Assembly (NCBI GenBank): GCA_035289845.1
Contig: DATDWB010000027.1
Coordinates: forward strand, 621 to 64,620
Origin: Candidatus Nanoarchaeia archaeon
GTDB taxonomy: Archaea; Nanobdellota; Nanobdellia; Woesearchaeales; GW2011-AR9
Length of the DNA: 64,000 bases
Direction: 5' to 3'
Shown here: positions 10,743 through 53,729 of the stretch, in pieces
How the letters are laid out: each line of letters begins with the position of its first letter
Position numbering within the stretch: the stretch's first letter is position 1
The notes under the pieces: generated by a model
The model's input: the letters and a program-made list of their open reading frames with translations, nothing else
What the model was told of the DNA's origin: nothing
Databases searched by the model: none
Position numbers and translations under genes: made by a program

Positions 10743-12872
10743 ATGTCTCTGAAGAAAAAGGAAAAAGGCGCCGATTGGTTTACTGTAGAAGTTGATTCAA
10801 AGGGAATCCTAACCCATTATCCTAAAGATGCCCTCCACGGATTAAAATCTATCCGGCTGCAGGTAGATTACGAGCCGGAAGCCTTGTACCTTCAGCTAAC
10901 ACAGGGGAAAAAACTTCTTAGCTCAGCAGTAGTGGATGGATCTTTCTACGAAAACTTTGCCGAACAATTACGTAAGGGGGCAGTATTAGAATTGCAAACT
11001 TCAATCGTTCAGGAGACAGAAAATGATCCGCCCATTCCTCGGCTGAAGATAAATTCTTTAAGAATTAACACCGATAAGCAATGGTATCTAACCCACCGCA
11101 CTGCTTATACCTTAGAAGATTTAACCGAGATTAAAAGAGAAATAAGACGGCGGGATGCTTATTATGATTCCTTAGCAGTTAGAGATAAAAAAAAGCAGAT
11201 TAAAATTCTTCAAAGAACGGAAAATGATCTTGATTTAGAAGATAAAATATCAGGTAAATTGGTTGAAGAACGTGGAGAGGAAGTGGAAGATGAAGATTTT
11301 AAAGAAAATGATTCTTCCACTGCCGAGGATTACATTGGGGCATTTACTTACCCAGAAATTAAACGAATTTCGCGGCAGCTGGGAATTAGACGACCCAGAT
11401 CGCCTGCCTCACCGCCCAGTCAAGGTGGGGGAAAAATGAAAAGCAATTCTGATCCACTCCAAATTGATTCTTACAGCTTAATTGAACAAGACCTGTCAAA
11501 ATCCAAAATACTCTCCAAAGAATCTGAAATTCAACTTTGTAAAAAAATAGAATCAGCCAAAAATTTAATCCAAAAATTAGGTTCAGAATTACCAATAACC
11601 CTAGCGATGTATTTCCCAAGTGAAATGCCTAAGGCCCTATCCAAATCATTAGAGTTATTGCATCAATGGAAAATTAATTATAATAATACTAATAATGGTA
11701 ATGGTATACTGGAGGAATATTTTAATTTTAAACCGTTTGATTGCGACCCTGAAAAAATTACCCAAACCGAAATGGAATTAGAATCCATTATTAAATCCTG
11801 GAAGAAGTTAGGACTGCTGGGATCGCCAATATTAGATGAAGTTTTTAAAAATACAGATCCTGAAAATGTATCTTTTTTCTCAGAAAAATATATTAGACCT
11901 TTAGGTTCGCTAAGAGCATTAGCTAAGATACCTTTTAATTCCCAAGTTAAAAAAGAATTAATCCGCTGGGCGGTGGAAAGAGGATTACAGGACTATTTGC
12001 ATAAGAAATCACCCGAAGAATCTACTTATTACAGAAAACAAGGCAATGGCTTTAGATTAAACAGCAGCTATTTTATATCTAAATATATAGAGGGTGAAGT
12101 AAATTATAATCAGTTAGTGGGAGAATTTGCCAAAGCAAATATGCGGTTAGTTAGATCTTATGTTAACCGGTTTAGTGGTTATTGCTCGGGAGCAATTGCC
12201 CTTACCGATCTTTTCCAGGAAGGCAACCTGGGTCTGCTTAGAGCCATCAAAAAGTTTGACTGGCGGAAAGGTCATAAGTTTTCAACTTATGCTACTTGGT
12301 GGATCTACCAAGGAATTAGCAAGTATGCCAAAGATAACAACAGCTCAATTAGAATTCCCTTGCATCTCCAAGATAAAATTCATAACATCAAAAAATATTA
12401 TTCTAATTTTACTCAACTATATGACCGGGAGCCTACCGCAGAAGAATTAGATCTTGAATTTCCTCCCGGCCAGCAGGGAAAGAAGTCGGGAAGTGATATT
12501 CTAAAAGAAGCCCGTTCAGCAAAAGTTTATTCTCTTAATTCAAACATCAATACCGAAGATGACAGTGAAAAATTCAAGTTAGACAAATATATAGATGGAA
12601 ATGAAGAAAACTTGGTTGGGTTCATGGCAGTTGAAAAACAGTCTGAAACACAAGTTTATGACCAAGAACTGTTAGAAAAAAATAATAGGATTATTAGCGA
12701 GGTTTTGGGTAAACGAGAAGCAGAGATAATCCGTAAACGGTTTGGGTTGTATCCCTACCAAAAGATTTATACTTTAGAAGCTATCGGAAATACTTTTGGT
12801 CTAACCCGAGAACGGATTAGGCAGCTTGAACAAATATCTATGTTAAGGTTGAAGGAAAAAATCATAAAATAA
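10743..12872 (+). CDS. sigma-70 family RNA polymerase sigma factor (RpoD-like: regions 1.2, 2, 3, 4) with long N-terminal extension
   Basis: Region 1.2 'DPLQIDSYSLIEQDLSKSKILSKESEIQLCKKIE'. Region 2 'ANMRLVRSYVNRF...LTDLFQEGNLGLLRAIKKFDWRKGHKFSTYATWWIYQGISKYAKDNNSSIRIPLHLQDKIHNIKK'. Region 4.2 HTH 'VLGKREAEIIRKRFGLYPYQKIYTLEAIGNTFGLTRERIRQLEQISMLRLKEK'. Confidence 0.8.
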   Translation: MSLKKKEKGADWFTVEVDSKGILTHYPKDALHGLKSIRLQVDYEPEALYLQLTQGKKLLSSAVVDGSFYENFAEQLRKGAVLELQTSIVQETENDPPIPRLKINSLRINTDKQWYLTHRTAYTLEDLTEIKREIRRRDAYYDSLAVRDKKKQIKILQRTENDLDLEDKISGKLVEERGEEVEDEDFKENDSSTAEDYIGAFTYPEIKRISRQLGIRRPRSPASPPSQGGGKMKSNSDPLQIDSYSLIEQDLSKSKILSKESEIQLCKKIESAKNLIQKLGSELPITLAMYFPSEMPKALSKSLELLHQWKINYNNTNNGNGILEEYFNFKPFDCDPEKITQTEMELESIIKSWKKLGLLGSPILDEVFKNTDPENVSFFSEKYIRPLGSLRALAKIPFNSQVKKELIRWAVERGLQDYLHKKSPEESTYYRKQGNGFRLNSSYFISKYIEGEVNYNQLVGEFAKANMRLVRSYVNRFSGYCSGAIALTDLFQEGNLGLLRAIKKFDWRKGHKFSTYATWWIYQGISKYAKDNNSSIRIPLHLQDKIHNIKKYYSNFTQLYDREPTAEELDLEFPPGQQGKKSGSDILKEARSAKVYSLNSNINTEDDSEKFKLDKYIDGNEENLVGFMAVEKQSETQVYDQELLEKNNRIISEVLGKREAEIIRKRFGLYPYQKIYTLEAIGNTFGLTRERIRQLEQISMLRLKEKIIK

Positions 12873-16209: not shown

Positions 16210-16216
16210 TAGTTTA

Positions 16217-16345
16217 TTATAGAGAAGTTTGAAAAAAAGTAATTTTGGTAAATATATTGTTTGTTTAAAGTCAAAATTACGACTATTTCAAACTTCTCTT
16301 TAGAACTTTGCTAATAAATCATCTAATTTTGCAAAGTTCTCTATA
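16217..16345. repeat. palindromic intergenic repeat element, copy A (nested hairpins)
   Basis: Perfect 14-bp inverted repeat 'AGAGAAGTTTGAAA ... TTTCAAACTTCTCT' (16221..16299) with an inner 'GTAATTTTGG...CAAAATTAC' pair. A second hairpin 'AGAACTTTGC ... GCAAAGTTCT' (16302..16340). Lies between the convergent genes at 16209 and 16393. Related to copies at 18933, 38650 and 53281. Confidence 0.6.
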
Positions 16346-18277: not shown

Positions 18278-18934
18278 ATGTCCCTAGATAAAGTATTGGA
18301 TGAGAAGGAAATATATTGTATCGGAATTTATTGGACAGATGACGAATGGAATAAAAGGAAAGAAATAGTCTGGCCGCTGATTAGAGAAGAAGCCGATTTA
18401 TGCGCCTATGCTGGGATTTATTTTCTGGACGATCGTTACCAAGAATTAAAAGATGAACTTGAACAAAGAGTATTGAGCTCCCCCGATAGTTCTTATATTG
18501 CTATCCTTAGATGGAATGACAACCGGATTGGGCCAGTATTACAACAGGCAGCGGATGCAGTTTCAAAATCACCCCGCCACAGTTATCTGGCGGGAATAAA
18601 ATTGAGCGAAGTACGGTTCAATGAAATTGGTTATCTAATCTGCAGGGGTGTTCTTGAGAGCAAGGTGTATACTAATATTGTATTAGAAGTTAATCCTGAA
18701 ACTTGGGAAAGCTGCAGAAAAGAGACTCTACTCCGAATAGAACTGGAATTAGAAGAAATAAGGAAAAGCACCCAATCAGAACAGGAAAGAGAAAGAATAA
18801 AGAAAGGCGGACGAGTATCGGTAGCAGCGAATGATAAAGCCAAATTATCATTAAGCAAAGAAGGTAATTCTATAATCGAAACTCCCTCTTCGCCAAATCG
18901 ATGGTATCAGAAATTATGGCCTAATAAATCTTAA
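18278..18934 (+). CDS. hypothetical protein (218 aa)
   Basis: ORF only. Its stop codon abuts repeat copy B. Confidence 0.4.
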   Translation: MSLDKVLDEKEIYCIGIYWTDDEWNKRKEIVWPLIREEADLCAYAGIYFLDDRYQELKDELEQRVLSSPDSSYIAILRWNDNRIGPVLQQAADAVSKSPRHSYLAGIKLSEVRFNEIGYLICRGVLESKVYTNIVLEVNPETWESCRKETLLRIELELEEIRKSTQSEQERERIKKGGRVSVAANDKAKLSLSKEGNSIIETPSSPNRWYQKLWPNKS

Positions 18935-19054
18935 GAGAAGTTTGCATAATTAAATTATTTATCCGCAAACTTCTAAAGAGAATTTGAAATAAACGTAATT
19001 TTGGTATTAAACAACGATATATTTGCCAAAATTACTATTTTTCAAACTTCTCTT
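18933..19054. repeat. palindromic intergenic repeat element, copy B
   Basis: Hairpin 1 'AGAGAAGTTTGC-ATAATTAAATTATTTATCC-GCAAACTTCT'. Hairpin 2 'AGAGAATTTGAAA...GTAATTTTGG...CCAAAATTAC...TTTCAAACTTCTCT'. Near-identical to copy C at 53281. Confidence 0.6.
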
Positions 19055-20444: not shown

Positions 20445-20684
20445 TTGAAATATATGGAAAGGGAATCAAAAAAAGATTGGAAGCGTATTTTGGCGTTTAT
20501 AGGAGTAATTGTTAGTATAATAATGTTGGCTATAATTTCCTTCAGCAGCCACAGTTCTAATTCCATTACGGGAGCTGCTACGGCAGGATTTAGTTATTCC
20601 ACTTTTTCCTCCGGCATAATTACAGTGTTATCAATAATTGGATTAATTATTTCGATAGTTTCCTTAAATAGATTAAATAAGTGA
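20445..20684 (+). CDS. small membrane protein (79 aa), hypothetical
   Basis: Two hydrophobic helices. Stop TGA at 20682..20684, immediately followed by the MITE-like element. Confidence 0.3.
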   Translation: MKYMERESKKDWKRILAFIGVIVSIIMLAIISFSSHSSNSITGAATAGFSYSTFSSGIITVLSIIGLIISIVSLNRLNK

Positions 20685-20694
20685 GATTTTAGGG

Positions 20695-20814
20695 GGTCTG
20701 TCCAGAATGGAATGTATTTGTATACTGGAGCACGGCGCGATTATAAATTTCCTTCGTAAATTTATGCGCCTCTTTTGGCGCCAGTATACAAAATGGCGTT
20801 ATTCTGGACAGACC
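20695..20814. mobile_element. MITE-like non-autonomous element: 14-bp perfect TIRs flanked by a 9-bp direct repeat
   Basis: Left TIR 'GGTCTGTCCAGAAT' (20695..20708). Right TIR 'ATTCTGGACAGACC' (20801..20814). Flanking 'ATTTTAGGG' at 20686..20694 and 20816..20824 (putative TSD). Interior is itself a long nested hairpin (TTGTATACTGG/CCAGTATACAA, GGCGC/GCGCC). Confidence 0.55.
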
Positions 20815-20830
20815 AATTTTAGGGTAAATA

Positions 20831-21643
20831 TTAAATTTTTTTCAAATCTTTTCTTATTTTATAAGCCTTTTCGGCATCGTCTATAATAGAAGTATCAACT
20901 TCCTGAATAAACATTTCTTCCTGATTATGATTTAATTTTTTAAACACACCTTTAAACGGCCCCGTGATCTGGGAATGCCCCGTTAAGGTCCATTTTTTAT
21001 TTTTAAATTTAAATTTCCCAGCGGCATTACAAAAAACATGGATAATCTCATTTTCACAAGCCCGGCTCAAACAACACGAATCAATAAATATTTCTTCAGC
21101 TTGAGGATTATGATGCAGGCCTCGGGAGGAAGCATCTTGGTTGCTCCAAAAAGAGGAACAAATTATTATTTTAGCTCCTTTTTTAACCATCAAACGATAA
21201 ACTTCCGGAAAGGCCAAATCCCAGCAGATGGTCAGCCCAATTTTACCCCATTTAGTATTAAATACTTCTACCTCTGATCCGGAAGTTAAGTAAGGGCGTT
21301 CGGGATGCCATAAATTGATTTTGTGATATTTTCCTTTTACTTTTCCTTTAGAATCAATGTAATAAACTGTATTAAAAATTTTGGTTTTATACTGAGTCTG
21401 CATAGAACCGGTAACAATATCCAACTTATATTTCCGGGCTAAGACCTGAAATTTCTGCCTTAATTCGCCGTGTTTATCCTGGAAATTCCAAGAAAAGATA
21501 TATTCAGGGAAAACAATAAGATCTGCTTTCCGAGTTGCTTTTTGAAGATAAGATTCTATTTTCTCAAATCTGTTCTCAACACTAGAATCATCTAAAGATA
21601 ACTGCACCACCGCTATCTTAAATTTCATAAGATAACAGTTCAA
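20831..21643 (-). CDS. carbon-nitrogen hydrolase (nitrilase superfamily)
   Basis: Glu-Lys-Cys triad context 'IVFPEY', 'KINLW', '[12 protein letters not shown]'. The start may be the internal Met at 21628 (MKFKIAVVQ). Confidence 0.8.
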
Positions 21644-32621: not shown

Positions 32622-32858
32622 ATGCCTAAAAAAGTAAAATCACGGAAATCAGAAAAAAGCAAACCTGAAGTCAAGCCTTCTCGCCATTGGCAGGTTGTAC
32701 CCTTGAAAAGCAGTTTCATGGTTACAGCGATAGTTGGGTTTATTATCAGCGCGTTTTTGATAGATGATTTTAATTATAGATTGGCGTTTATGATTGTGTT
32801 CGGGTTAATGTTCATTGCTTCGTTTATAAGTTTAGAGAAAGCTCCAGTAATGGAATAA
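32622..32858 (+). CDS. small membrane protein (78 aa), hypothetical
   Basis: Basic N-terminus followed by two TM helices. Confidence 0.3.
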   Translation: MPKKVKSRKSEKSKPEVKPSRHWQVVPLKSSFMVTAIVGFIISAFLIDDFNYRLAFMIVFGLMFIASFISLEKAPVME

Positions 32859-32865
32859 ATCAATT

Positions 32866-32960
32866 CTTGGCCGAGGCTATCCCACCGCTCCCTGTGGTCG
32901 CTACGCAGCAAGCTGCGGGGTATTAGACCCACAACGGGAATAAAAGTATAGGTGCTCAAC
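32866..32960. other. locally GC-rich structured element (candidate ncRNA or regulatory structure)
   Basis: 'GGCCGAGGCTATCCCACCGCTCCCTGTGGTCGCTACGCAGCAAGCTGCGGGGTATTAGACCCACAACGGG' contains hairpins GCAGC-AA-GCTGC and TGTGGTC...GACCCACA. Stands out against AT-rich flanks in a 173-nt intergenic gap. Confidence 0.2.
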
Positions 32961-34572: not shown

Positions 34573-34977
34573 GTGAATGTTATGAATTTATTTAAACAAA
34601 AATATAATGACCAATTATATTTCTTGTTCCGGATTGTAGTGGGATTAATGTTTCTAGGCCACGGCGGACAAAAATTGTTTGGTTGGATGGGAGGCAATGG
34701 AGTAGAATTGATGAGTTTGATGGGATTAGCCGGAGTAATTGAATTGGTAGGCGGGATACTTATAACCCTAGGTGTGTTTACCCGACTAGTAGCGGCCATA
34801 GCCGCAGTAGAAATGTTAGTAGCATTCTTTAAAATGCACGTATCCCAAGGCTGGAACCCGCTTATGAACGGAGGGGAACTAGCTTTGCTATACTTTGCTG
34901 CTTTCCTGGTAATGGTGGCCTGGGGCAACGGAAAATTGAGTTTAGAAAAGAAATTATTCAAAAAAGAACGATTTTGA
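34573..34977 (+). CDS. DoxX family membrane protein
   Basis: 'LFRIVVGLMFLGHGGQKLFGWMGG' and overall four-TM DoxX layout. Confidence 0.75.
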   Translation: MNVMNLFKQKYNDQLYFLFRIVVGLMFLGHGGQKLFGWMGGNGVELMSLMGLAGVIELVGGILITLGVFTRLVAAIAAVEMLVAFFKMHVSQGWNPLMNGGELALLYFAAFLVMVAWGNGKLSLEKKLFKKERF

Positions 34978-34992
34978 ATAATTTCTTTTTAT

Positions 34993-37209
34993 TTATTTTT
35001 TATTATATTCTGCAGTAAATAATTTAACTAATTTTTCGGCGGTTTTTGGACCTATCCCCTCCAATTCCTGCAGCTGTTGAGGGTTAGAATTGACTAAATT
35101 TTTAATAGTTTGCAGCTGTTCTAATATTTTTTTAGCTCCAGATAAACCTATTCCCGGCAAGGAAGAGATAAAATATTCCTGCTGCTCACTGATAGTAGAA
35201 GGTTTTTGATTAGGGAGAGATAAACCAGAATCCTTGCCCTGTTCCCGCTTAGCCATTATAGCTAATAACAGGGCCGTATCCTGAGGATTTTTAGTGTAGA
35301 GGATAGGAATGTTAAAATCTAAAGTTATTGAAGCCAGCATACCCCTAATGGCATTAGGGTGAATTTTTCTTACCCCATAAATGTCCTCCTCTCCTTCGAT
35401 GATCAAGATTGATTTAGGAAAATTAGCACGCAGCTCTTTCATCTGATCTAATAATCGGCCATCGATTATGGAAGCTACAAAATCCGGAATCTTTTTAAGT
35501 TCCACCCCTACCTGTCCGGAAAGAATATAATCAGCCGAATTTAATTGAGCGGTTTTAACGGCAACATTAAGTTCTATTAACTCTTTAACTACCTTATTAT
35601 CTTTCTCCCGATGATCAGCTAAAATAGAGATAACCGAAGAAGTGTTATTAACAAAACTGTTCAAATTAGTATTACCAATGGGTTTAGTTTCAAAATCTTT
35701 AATTAAAGAAAAACTCCGCTTCAACTGCTCTAAATTACGATACATCCGTTTTTCTTTATGCACGGAACTCCATCTATAAGCTTCATCCCGGGTGCCTTCG
35801 GTAACTAAAATAGTTACTTCGCCCTGCTCTAATCTGCCCGTCCGTCCTCGGCGTTGAATAGAACGTACTGCGCTGGGGATGGGTTCATAAAAAATTACTT
35901 TATCCACTTTAGGGATATCCAAGCCTTCTTCGGCCACTGAAGTAGCAATTAATACGGAAAATTGTCCCTGCCGGAAATTATCAAGAACTTCCTTCTGCTG
36001 TTTCTGAGTGAAACCTAGCCCTTTTTTCTTAGCTTGGCCAACAAAGATATGGTTTTTTACCCGGAGGTTATTAATCTCTGTGACAATCTCTTCAGCAGTG
36101 TCGCGGAATTGGGTAAAAATTATTATTTTGGCAGCTTGATTTTTAGTTAAAACTTCTTGCACCAATTCTTTAAGTTTAGCTTGTTTGGGGTGCTGAACGT
36201 GTTGATTCAGCAGTTGGTTGGTTAAGTGGACAGATTCCTTAAACAGTTCATCCAATACTAAATTCTTAACAGCCTTCACTTTAGAACTTACGGCTTGAGA
36301 TTGAAGTTTATCAAAATATTCAGTTAACGGCTTTATCCCCTGTGATTCCAATAATTCTAAGGCATGCTCCACTTTCAAGGCTTCAGCTAATAAAGAAATT
36401 GATCTCAGAGCTTCAAAATTTAACTCCCCGCTGGAAATTTCTTTCTGCAATTCCAACTGCAATCCCAACATTTGGCTTTTATTTAGATCACTGCTGTGGC
36501 TGCAGCCAAGCTGTTTAATTTCAATTAACTTGTTAGCTATACAGGTTTTAAGTTTAGTTCGGATAGATTTGAATTCTTCCGGAAAGGGAACTTTAACCCA
36601 TTTTAATTTAACGGTCTGCAAATAAGGTTTAACGTCCGGATCCGATTCAGTTCTTACCTCAACCTTATCAATCTTTAAATTGGCACAAACTTCCTTAATT
36701 TTTTCCAAATCACTGCCAGGAGAAGCTGTTAGAGCTAGAATTCGTCCATAGTTAGATTGTTTATCATACTGTTCAGCAATCCATACATAAGCATATTCTC
36801 CGGTGGCGTGATGACACTCATCAAAGATTAGCAGGGATACTTCCGCCAACCTTATTCGCTGGTTAATAATGTCGTTTTCTAATCCCTGAGGAGTGGAAAT
36901 AATTATTTGAGCCGATTTCCACATTTCCGCCCGGGTATCGGGCCGCACATTCCCAGTGAAGAGGACCACCTTGTCTGGATCTATAGCCAGATGTTTTTGG
37001 AATGACTGGACATGCTGCTCGCAGAGAGGTTTAGTTGGAGCTAACATCAAAATCTTAGAATTAGGATAATTGTTCATTCTCTGAGCGGCCAATAAAAAAG
37101 CGCAGGCGGTCTTCCCTAGACCTGTAGGAAGAACAACCAGAGTGTTATGTTTTACGCTGGTGTAGAGAATAGTTTGTTGATATAATCTAGGAGTGAAATC
37201 CTTGAGCAT
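34993..37209 (-). CDS. hef: Hef/FANCM-like helicase-nuclease (SF2 helicase + ERCC4/XPF nuclease + HhH2)
   Basis: Helicase motifs 'LPTGLGKT' and 'DECHHATG'. Nuclease 'ILADHREK...ADYILS...ERK'-type ERCC4 core ('SVISILADHREKDNKVVKEL...IIEGEEDIYG'). C-terminal HhH2 'LPGIGLSGAKKILEQ...LEGIGPKTAEKL'. Confidence 0.85.
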   Translation of the reverse strand: MLKDFTPRLYQQTILYTSVKHNTLVVLPTGLGKTACAFLLAAQRMNNYPNSKILMLAPTKPLCEQHVQSFQKHLAIDPDKVVLFTGNVRPDTRAEMWKSAQIIISTPQGLENDIINQRIRLAEVSLLIFDECHHATGEYAYVWIAEQYDKQSNYGRILALTASPGSDLEKIKEVCANLKIDKVEVRTESDPDVKPYLQTVKLKWVKVPFPEEFKSIRTKLKTCIANKLIEIKQLGCSHSSDLNKSQMLGLQLELQKEISSGELNFEALRSISLLAEALKVEHALELLESQGIKPLTEYFDKLQSQAVSSKVKAVKNLVLDELFKESVHLTNQLLNQHVQHPKQAKLKELVQEVLTKNQAAKIIIFTQFRDTAEEIVTEINNLRVKNHIFVGQAKKKGLGFTQKQQKEVLDNFRQGQFSVLIATSVAEEGLDIPKVDKVIFYEPIPSAVRSIQRRGRTGRLEQGEVTILVTEGTRDEAYRWSSVHKEKRMYRNLEQLKRSFSLIKDFETKPIGNTNLNSFVNNTSSVISILADHREKDNKVVKELIELNVAVKTAQLNSADYILSGQVGVELKKIPDFVASIIDGRLLDQMKELRANFPKSILIIEGEEDIYGVRKIHPNAIRGMLASITLDFNIPILYTKNPQDTALLLAIMAKREQGKDSGLSLPNQKPSTISEQQEYFISSLPGIGLSGAKKILEQLQTIKNLVNSNPQQLQELEGIGPKTAEKLVKLFTAEYNKK

Positions 37210-38649: not shown

Positions 38650-38698
38650 TATAGAGAAGTTTGCGGATAAATAATTTAATTATGCAAACTTCTCTATA
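38650..38698. repeat. palindromic repeat element, copy D (hairpin 1 only, 15-bp perfect stem)
   Basis: 'TATAGAGAAGTTTGC-GGATAAATAATTTAATTAT-GCAAACTTCTCTATA' between convergent genes. Overlaps the stop codon of the minus-strand gene that ends at 38694. Confidence 0.6.
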
Positions 38699-53280: not shown

Positions 53281-53402
53281 ATAGAGAAGTTTGCATAATT
53301 AAATTATTTATCCGCAAACTTCTAAAGAGAATTTGAAATAAACGTAATTTTGGCATTAAACAAATGATATATTTACCAAAATTACTATTTTTCAAACTTC
53401 TC
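53281..53402. repeat. palindromic intergenic repeat element, copy C (near-identical to copy B)
   Basis: 'ATAGAGAAGTTTGCATAATTAAATTATTTATCCGCAAACTTCTAAAGAGAATTTGAAATAAACGTAATTTTGG...CCAAAATTACTATTTTTCAAACTTCTC'. Same orientation and architecture as 18933..19054. Confidence 0.6.
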
Positions 53403-53729
53403 CATAATAAAATTTATTTATCTAATGCCTTATTTTACGACCACCCCTATTTAAGCGTTGAATATTTGGAGATAGTTTCGGCCAATCTGCCTGAAGGAGG
53501 GTTGATTTATAGTGTAAAAATGACTAGAGGACAGGTTTATACTCCGCCTTCAACTAAAATAGATATAGAACTTACAAAAATCGCTAATCTGAAAATACAA
53601 ATAATCAGATGTTGATCACTGAAGTCTACCGAGTCCGACCTAAAAACAAGGAGGGGTAGAAACAATACCCTCCATTACAACAATTTTTATAAAGGAAACT
53701 CCTTCTGAGGGAACATTAAGGGTGGAATT

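Follow-up and report, generated by a model that had tools for sequence, protein, structure and literature searches.

Positions 20694-20815 of the window, by which the whole 64-kb stretch of DNA analysed is meant, hold with a probability of about 93% one copy of a MITE, that is, a transposase-less DNA transposon of 122 bp in a Woesearchaeota-type archaeon. A length below 500 bp, no transposase gene, terminal inverted repeats (TIRs), target-site duplications constant in length and varied in sequence, and multiple dispersed copies have all been found for this element. The non-autonomous MITE proposed in an earlier note on this DNA has therewith been borne out by the presence of the element at at least 11 sites with differing flanking genes, by an own 8-bp duplication at each of the 10 complete copies and by no protein being encoded. 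The family, designated MITE-A in the following, is apparently undescribed upon comparison with a plasmid collection and the full-text literature. As a mobile element it is genuine, though of an ordinary kind, and it opens up no new mechanism and no new element class.

Anatomy of the element and its insertion site

The features of the locus and the evidence for each of them are given below, with the plus strand of the element being the orientation in which GGAATGTA adjoins the left TIR.

20694..20815, plus strand: MITE-A element, 122 bp, non-coding (comparison with other copies)
20686..20693, no strand: left 8-bp target-site duplication ATTTTAGG (repeat search and layout in 10 of 10 complete copies)
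20816..20823, no strand: right 8-bp target-site duplication ATTTTAGG (same 8-bp layout)
20694..20708, plus strand: left TIR, 15 nt, GGGTCTGTCCAGAAT (inverted-repeat search, alignment of copies)
20801..20815, plus strand: right TIR, 15 nt, ATTCTGGACAGACCA (inverted-repeat search, alignment of copies)
20717..20792, plus strand: inner stem, TTTGTATACTGG (20717-20728) with CCAGTATACAAA (20781-20792) (repeat search, folding, alignment)
20734..20771, plus strand: apical GC-clamped hairpin module GGCGC-GATT-ATAAATTT-CCTTCGT-AAATTTAT-GCGCC (folding, alignment)
20454..20684, plus strand: upstream gene with a 76-aa product (79 aa from a TTG start at 20445), no Pfam match
20831..21628, minus strand: downstream convergent carbon-nitrogen hydrolase, 265 aa in the gene calls of public assemblies

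The arms GGTCTGTCCAGAAT (20695-20708) and ATTCTGGACAGACC (20801-20814) are 100% complementary at a spacing of 92 nt, and the only exact matches to the 14-mer arm in the 64-kb window are these two arms themselves. The perfect 14-bp TIRs described earlier hold in this respect; the TIR of the family has, however, 15 bp (consensus TGGTCTGTCCAGAAT, in the arrangement T-GGTCTGTCCAGAAT...ATTCTGGACAGACC-A with consensus tips TG...CA), and the window copy carries a G for the T at the tip. This left-tip base is G in the window copy (20694), T in six others and A in the three copies of the metagenome-derived genome CAZWBB01, and the right TIR does not vary among the copies apart from a single T in one of them (L019). 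Given a left tip base that can be T, G or A, the exact cleavage position at the ends of the element is deduced from the comparison of sequences.

The variable tip equally accounts for the duplication of 9 bp that had been reported for this locus, which comparison with the other copies corrects to 8 bp (ATTTTAGG). A direct repeat of apparently 9 bp, ATTTTAGGG, is present at 20686-20694 and 20816-20824, as the tip G (20694) happens to equal the base 3' of the right duplication. All 10 complete copies have the layout (8 bp)-x-GGTCTG...CAGACC-A-(same 8 bp) in common, with x as the tip base, from which an element of 122 bp, a TIR of 15 bp and a duplication of 8 bp follow. The 9-mer ATTTTAGGG occurs 5 times in the 64 kb as compared to 2.45 expected occurrences, and our own arithmetic assigns a probability of about 1e-3 to a second 9-mer within a few nucleotides of the right arm. 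One single ORF touches the element; it spans 20707-20886 (59 aa), begins within the element and extends, in antisense, into the hydrolase gene, and has been judged spurious. No ORF is contained in the element and none of the copies of MITE-A encodes a protein.

The position of the element between two convergent stop codons has been described correctly, including the distances. The TGA of the upstream gene ends at 20684, which places the stop codon 1 nt before the target site, and the hydrolase stop on the minus strand (20831-20833) is located 7 nt past the right duplication. Deletion in silico of the element together with one duplication results in TGA-G-ATTTTAGG-GTAAATA-TTA and an intergenic gap of 16 nt, with AAATAAGTGAGATTTTAGGGTAAATATTAAATTTT as the reconstructed empty site, and shows, for a pre-insertion state read from the window sequence, two convergent genes only 16 nt apart. 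An empty-site allele, the comparison with which had been advised, was looked for among contigs with identical flanking proteins and was not found: look-ups with the hydrolase, the KH protein and the 76-aa protein returned loci that were all occupied or truncated, and MITE-A is present on each public contig on which the flanking proteins are identical. Among hydrolase homologues that are not identical, the nearest reach only 68% identity, and two examined on longer contigs (66-67%) are not syntenic.

Further copies, mobility and host

Exact-pattern scans identified MITE-A at at least 11 distinct insertion sites, with 10 complete copies and one cut by the end of its locus. The earlier note had suggested a search for such copies, with their absence from anywhere else as grounds to abandon the MITE; the search was run and found them, and the statement that the window itself holds a single copy is correct for the MITE-A family. 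Species-representative genomes were scanned with the pattern GGTCTGTCCAG, 83-113 nt, CTGGACAGACC, which requires 11-nt ends. Among the matches listed, 13 loci were obtained, three of which (L004, L005 and L010) are homologous over the whole length of the element; these copies lie on three contigs of one MAG, CAZWBB01, are about 78% identical to the window copy and have duplications that differ at each copy (TAGTAATT, GATTAAAG and GAAAAAAC).

Metagenomes were scanned with the left-end 20-mer as query, which gave ten loci among the matches listed, eight of them real; the other two (L015 and L016) are chance matches inside coding sequence. Five copies from metagenome Ga0209542 (L014, L019, L020, L023 and, as the incomplete one, L017) are 97.5-98.4% identical to the window copy. 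A relative of 299 nt (L018 6497-6795) also stems from Ga0209542, and one of 250 nt (L022 113-362) occupies one site shared by two loci (L021/L022), from Ga0210057 and Ga0066639. These longer relatives have the same ends and 4-6 hairpin modules as compared to one module in the 122-nt form, with some of the modules common to both of them, and the family is, as far as can be read from the alignments, modular. The duplications of the metagenome copies are TAATAGTG, GCTGAATG, ATGAAATC/ATAAAATC (7/8), ATCACAAC, TCCCCTCA and AATAATTA. Altogether, the 8-bp duplication is perfect in nine of the ten complete copies and matches at 7 of 8 positions in the tenth; all ten sequences differ, are AT-rich and have no motif in common.

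None of the ten complete copies interrupts a gene; they lie between genes arranged convergently, divergently or in tandem and are inserted in both orientations. Their neighbours are unrelated housekeeping genes, such as those for AlaRS, ABCE1/RLI, adenylosuccinate synthetase, Lgt, transporters and RFC. Six sites derive from metagenome Ga0209542 and three from the MAG CAZWBB01, with all copies presumably in a single genome. The identity of 97.5-98.4% among copies of the Ga0209542 type together with the intact duplications points, at the level of sequence, to recent activity.

The ten remaining loci of the genome scan are best assigned to separate families, as they share only the 11 nt required by the pattern and have unrelated interiors. 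Matches outside the family include Burkholderiaceae, Planctomycetota, Anaerolineales, Spirillospora and Thermoproteus, and the loci in other phyla were treated as other families since inverted repeats at such spacing are common. In five of these ten loci, from Planctomycetota and a gammaproteobacterium, the flanks read CTAGT...ACTAG. As an observation apart, one of the loci (L007 453-578, from a Fimbriiglobus MAG) contains four direct copies of GGTCTGTCCAG within about 100 nt and, behind them, one inverted copy. Such an array is reminiscent of the several transposase-binding sites with which a larger transposon may end, and it has no relationship to the archaeal MITE-A family. In viral contigs, the paired-end pattern had no match, and nine matches to a 17-mer were chance, located in coding sequence and with no homology past the 17-mer. 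A blastn search of the plasmid collection with the element gave no match, and a full-text literature search with the terminal 11-mer returned unrelated papers only.

A mobile element of another kind, for example a palindrome-associated element of the IS200/IS605 type, a repeat of the REP/RAYT type or a TA-targeting MITE of the IS630/Tc1 type, is very improbable. Such elements would be in line with the palindromic build, and the CTAGT...ACTAG flanks of the Planctomycetota and gammaproteobacterial elements with the same 11-nt ends suggest a CTAG target and a TA duplication. IS200/IS605 and REP elements are, however, without terminal inverted repeats and do not produce a target duplication, against which stand the 15-bp TIRs and the 8-bp duplications of all ten complete copies. 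The length of 8 bp and the variety of these duplications, which are not limited to TA, speak equally against the IS630/Tc1 type, and the bacterial matches with just the 11 nt of the pattern in common and unrelated interiors are best read as separate families.

The public record of the window locus holds traces of additional copies. Exact-protein look-ups located this locus in several public assemblies, the samples of which come, judging from their names, presumably from an aquifer study. Five of the first seven contigs recovered for the locus end inside MITE-A. Two short public contigs of the same sample series contain the left flank of the window and the element, which is continued in one (L053 1-874) by the flank of another copy (L020 622-139) at 99.4% identity and in the other (L052 1-897) by a flank unmatched elsewhere. 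These joins are either assembly chimeras through the repeat or real recombinants between copies, and whichever origin applies, further copies exist in those samples. Contig breaks at the element could be caused by the palindrome instead of by repetition. Repeats of the MITE-A type break and mis-join metagenome assemblies, with several contigs ending there and two being apparently chimeric through the element.

Equally, a second MITE family, MITE-B, is present in the window. It has a length of about 120-132 nt, TIRs GAGAAGTTTG/CAAACTTCTC and 4-bp duplications (TATA, TTAA, CATA, TATT and TAAA), and a hairpin-only form of 41 nt exists. Its copies are located as follows.

16213-16344, minus strand: MITE-B copy in the window
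18934-19053: MITE-B copy in the window
53281-53411: MITE-B copy in the window
38655-38695: MITE-B copy in the window, short form
L014 405-537: MITE-B copy outside the window
L019 1716-1848 and 5560-5704: MITE-B copies outside the window
L023 about 980-1100: MITE-B copy outside the window

In the last of these loci, MITE-B interrupts a MITE-A copy in its apical loop, and removal of MITE-B with one TATA restores a 122-nt MITE-A which is 97.5% identical to the window copy. For MITE-B, a filled and an unfilled site both exist inside MITE-A, an indirect sign of mobility. Some public contigs appear, from their coordinates, to end at MITE-B copies.

With respect to the host, the named homologues of the hydrolase come from Woesearchaeota or Nanoarchaeota, and archaeal genes near MITE-A code for TopoVI A and B, a RIO kinase, a KH protein, PCNA and eIF-1A. 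The host is, to judge from these genes, a Woesearchaeota/Nanoarchaeota (DPANN) archaeon. On one of the CAZWBB01 contigs (L005 2103-3065, CAZWBB010000066.1), an RFC small subunit is 81-87% identical to RFCs of Woesearchaeota/Nanoarchaeota. CAZWBB01, the public label of which is 'uncultured Methanosarcinales archaeon', has probably been mislabelled or contaminated as a bin; the idea that a DPANN archaeon and a Methanosarcinales host have the MITE in common was rejected on the basis of this RFC identity. Two Woesearchaeal lineages, which have a GC content of about 34-39% and about 43%, respectively, are known to carry the family. MITE-A may serve as a lineage marker, having exposed a MAG labelled as Methanosarcinales with Woesearchaeal contigs. 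Separately, a 709-aa ORF in the window (10743-12872, plus strand) matches the bacterial-type Pfam domains Sigma70_r2 and Sigma70_r4.

Fold of the element and its possible roles

The nested inner stems described earlier are present, with 20717-20731 pairing with 20778-20792 (93% over 15 nt) and, in the apical part, 20743-20750 pairing with 20758-20765 (100% over 8 nt). The TGTATACT/AGTATACA core of the inner stem has been retained by all members of the family including the 250- and 299-nt relatives, and so has the outer stem consisting of the TIRs. At the apex, a GC-clamped AT-rich hairpin is formed which differs between the window-type and the CAZWBB01 subfamilies. The stability of the fold compared to shuffled sequences gives z = -7.3 (plus strand) and z = -10.1 (minus strand) as RNA and z = -9.6 as DNA, with none of 200 shuffles as stable as MITE-A.

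This very stable fold on both strands, the exact placement between two stop codons and the fact that the CAZWBB01 subfamily keeps a different apical hairpin would suit a fixed, non-mobile structured element as well, be it an ncRNA gene or a terminator hairpin for the convergent genes, next to which the repeated 9-mer would be coincidental. Such an explanation, which the earlier note had kept in reserve, fits the observations poorly and is hardly tenable. Ten further insertion sites exist with an own 8-bp duplication at each complete copy, the contexts of the copies are also divergent and tandem, upstream of genes and in both orientations, and one copy (L023) tolerates an insertion of about 120 nt in the apical loop. 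In addition, archaeal termination uses oligo-T tracts rather than hairpins, which counts against a terminator. At gathering score, no Rfam 15 family matched anywhere in the window; within 500 nt around the element, at E <= 10, just two weak matches to animal miRNA models at chance level were returned. ARAGORN identified no tRNA in the 64-kb window. A 5S rRNA or another 120-nt RNA, an idea derived from the length, was rejected upon no Rfam match and a rod-like fold without three-way junction.

On the other hand, the hairpin interior of a MITE might also serve the host, as an sRNA, as an mRNA-stabilising 3' structure or as a promoter carrier, which is compatible with the MITE reading and is unlikely. 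Outer and inner stems are conserved between subfamilies of about 78% identity and in the long relatives, the interior consists of recurring GC-clamped AT-rich hairpin modules, and MITE-derived sRNAs are known in Coxiella (PMC10969869). Against a host function, covariation assessed on two subfamilies only is without statistical power, the apical module differs between these subfamilies and is interrupted in L023, and stable folds are a general trait of MITEs (PMC10969869). The long hairpin would rather reflect the palindromic build common to MITEs, and at the window locus it would probably do no more than provide both convergent transcripts with a stable stem-loop at their 3' ends.

Two other structured sequences in the window are recorded here as observations in their own right. 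A GC-rich block of about 70 nt with the palindrome CGCAGCAAGCTGCG (32854-32923) lies in AT-rich intergenic sequence and is 91.5% identical to L018 5336-5406, an unrelated locus; it had no Rfam match at E <= 1 and may be a small RNA that has escaped annotation or a further repeat. A 44-nt imperfect palindrome (34946-34989) followed by a T-run just past the stop-codon end of a minus-strand gene (34993-37209) looks like a terminator hairpin.

Mobilisation and comparison with known systems

As a MITE, the element would depend on a transposase supplied in trans. A DDE-type enzyme would bind the TGGTCTGTCCAGAAT ends, cut an AT-rich target with an 8-bp stagger and join the ends of the element to it; gap repair would then produce the 8-bp duplication, and in a gene-dense genome only insertions into short intergenic gaps would persist. 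The cognate autonomous IS for which the earlier note had suggested a search, an element with the same ends, was searched for and not found in the window, in about 150 kb of related loci and among the exact-pattern matches listed. Equally, no transposase was seen among the Pfam-annotated gene calls, which extend over about two thirds of the window, or among 20 large ORFs scanned from copy-bearing loci, and a fuzzy search gave no pair of TIRs at IS-like spacing. Two ORFs of equal length (289 aa) in L019 had been considered as transposase candidates and turned out to be unrelated housekeeping genes. That MITE-A is an orphan family with no cognate transposase in a reduced DPANN genome, driven in recent bursts (copies of 97.5-98.4% identity) by an external transposase, appears improbable; if true, the enzyme would come from a plasmid, from a virus or from the cell that an archaeon of this kind attaches to.

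The best lead for the parent is an archaeal IS6-like element, a resemblance at the sequence level and not a membership. The IS6/IS26 family has 8-bp duplications and TIRs of 14-17 bp with the consensus GGTTCTGTTGCAAA, of which G1, G2 and G7 are conserved; the archaeal IS6-like members have variable tip bases, and two MITEs of 227 and 336 bp have been recorded for the family (PMC7986276; PMC6807381). MITE-A shares the 8-bp duplication, the short TIRs of 15 bp and the variable tip. Aligned from the tip, TGGTCTGTCCAGAAT and GGTTCTGTTGCAAA match at 8 of 14 positions, namely G2, the TCTGT core (positions 4-8, including G7) and A13-A14, conserved IS6 bases which, as Harmer and Hall point out, occur in other IS families too (PMC7986276; PMC6807381). 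In contrast to IS6/IS26, the tip of MITE-A is T, G or A instead of GG with G1 in the window copy only, G10 and the CAAA motif are absent, and no IS6-type transposase was found near the element. In a lesser variant of the improbable orphan-family reading, MITE-A would be mobilised by an archaeal IS6-like copy-in transposase, a mode of MITE mobilisation that has barely been documented.

With pneumococcal BOX elements, the family has in common conserved end modules and a variable number of internal hairpin modules. BOX elements are without clear TIRs or target duplications, whereas the MITE-A family has both. MITEs as such are well known from both bacteria and archaea. According to the published description, in which BOX is mentioned as well, prokaryotic MITEs are shorter than 500 bp, carry TIRs of about 4-30 bp between direct repeats, target AT-rich intergenic DNA and form stable stem-loops; archaeal examples have been listed for Sulfolobus and haloarchaea (PMC10969869). 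QMITE2 of Coxiella burnetii has direct repeats of 7-9 bp, TIRs of 23-29 bp and a core of 113-145 bp (PMC10969869). MITE-A resembles these elements, QMITE2 as well as those of Sulfolobus and haloarchaea, in being short, non-coding and multicopy with TIRs, duplications, AT-rich intergenic targets and a strong fold. It differs in its shorter TIRs (15 bp), its DPANN host and in that no related IS was found.

Furthermore, a 2024 census of prokaryotic MITEs reported 105 per Mb for one Woesearchaea genome, which ranks among the archaeal genomes with the highest MITE density (PMC11602168). In the 64 kb of the window, by comparison, two families account for five MITE copies, or about 78 per Mb. In this small, gene-dense DPANN genome, non-autonomous transposons of at least two families have recently been active, in agreement with the very high MITE density reported in that census for a Woesearchaeal genome.
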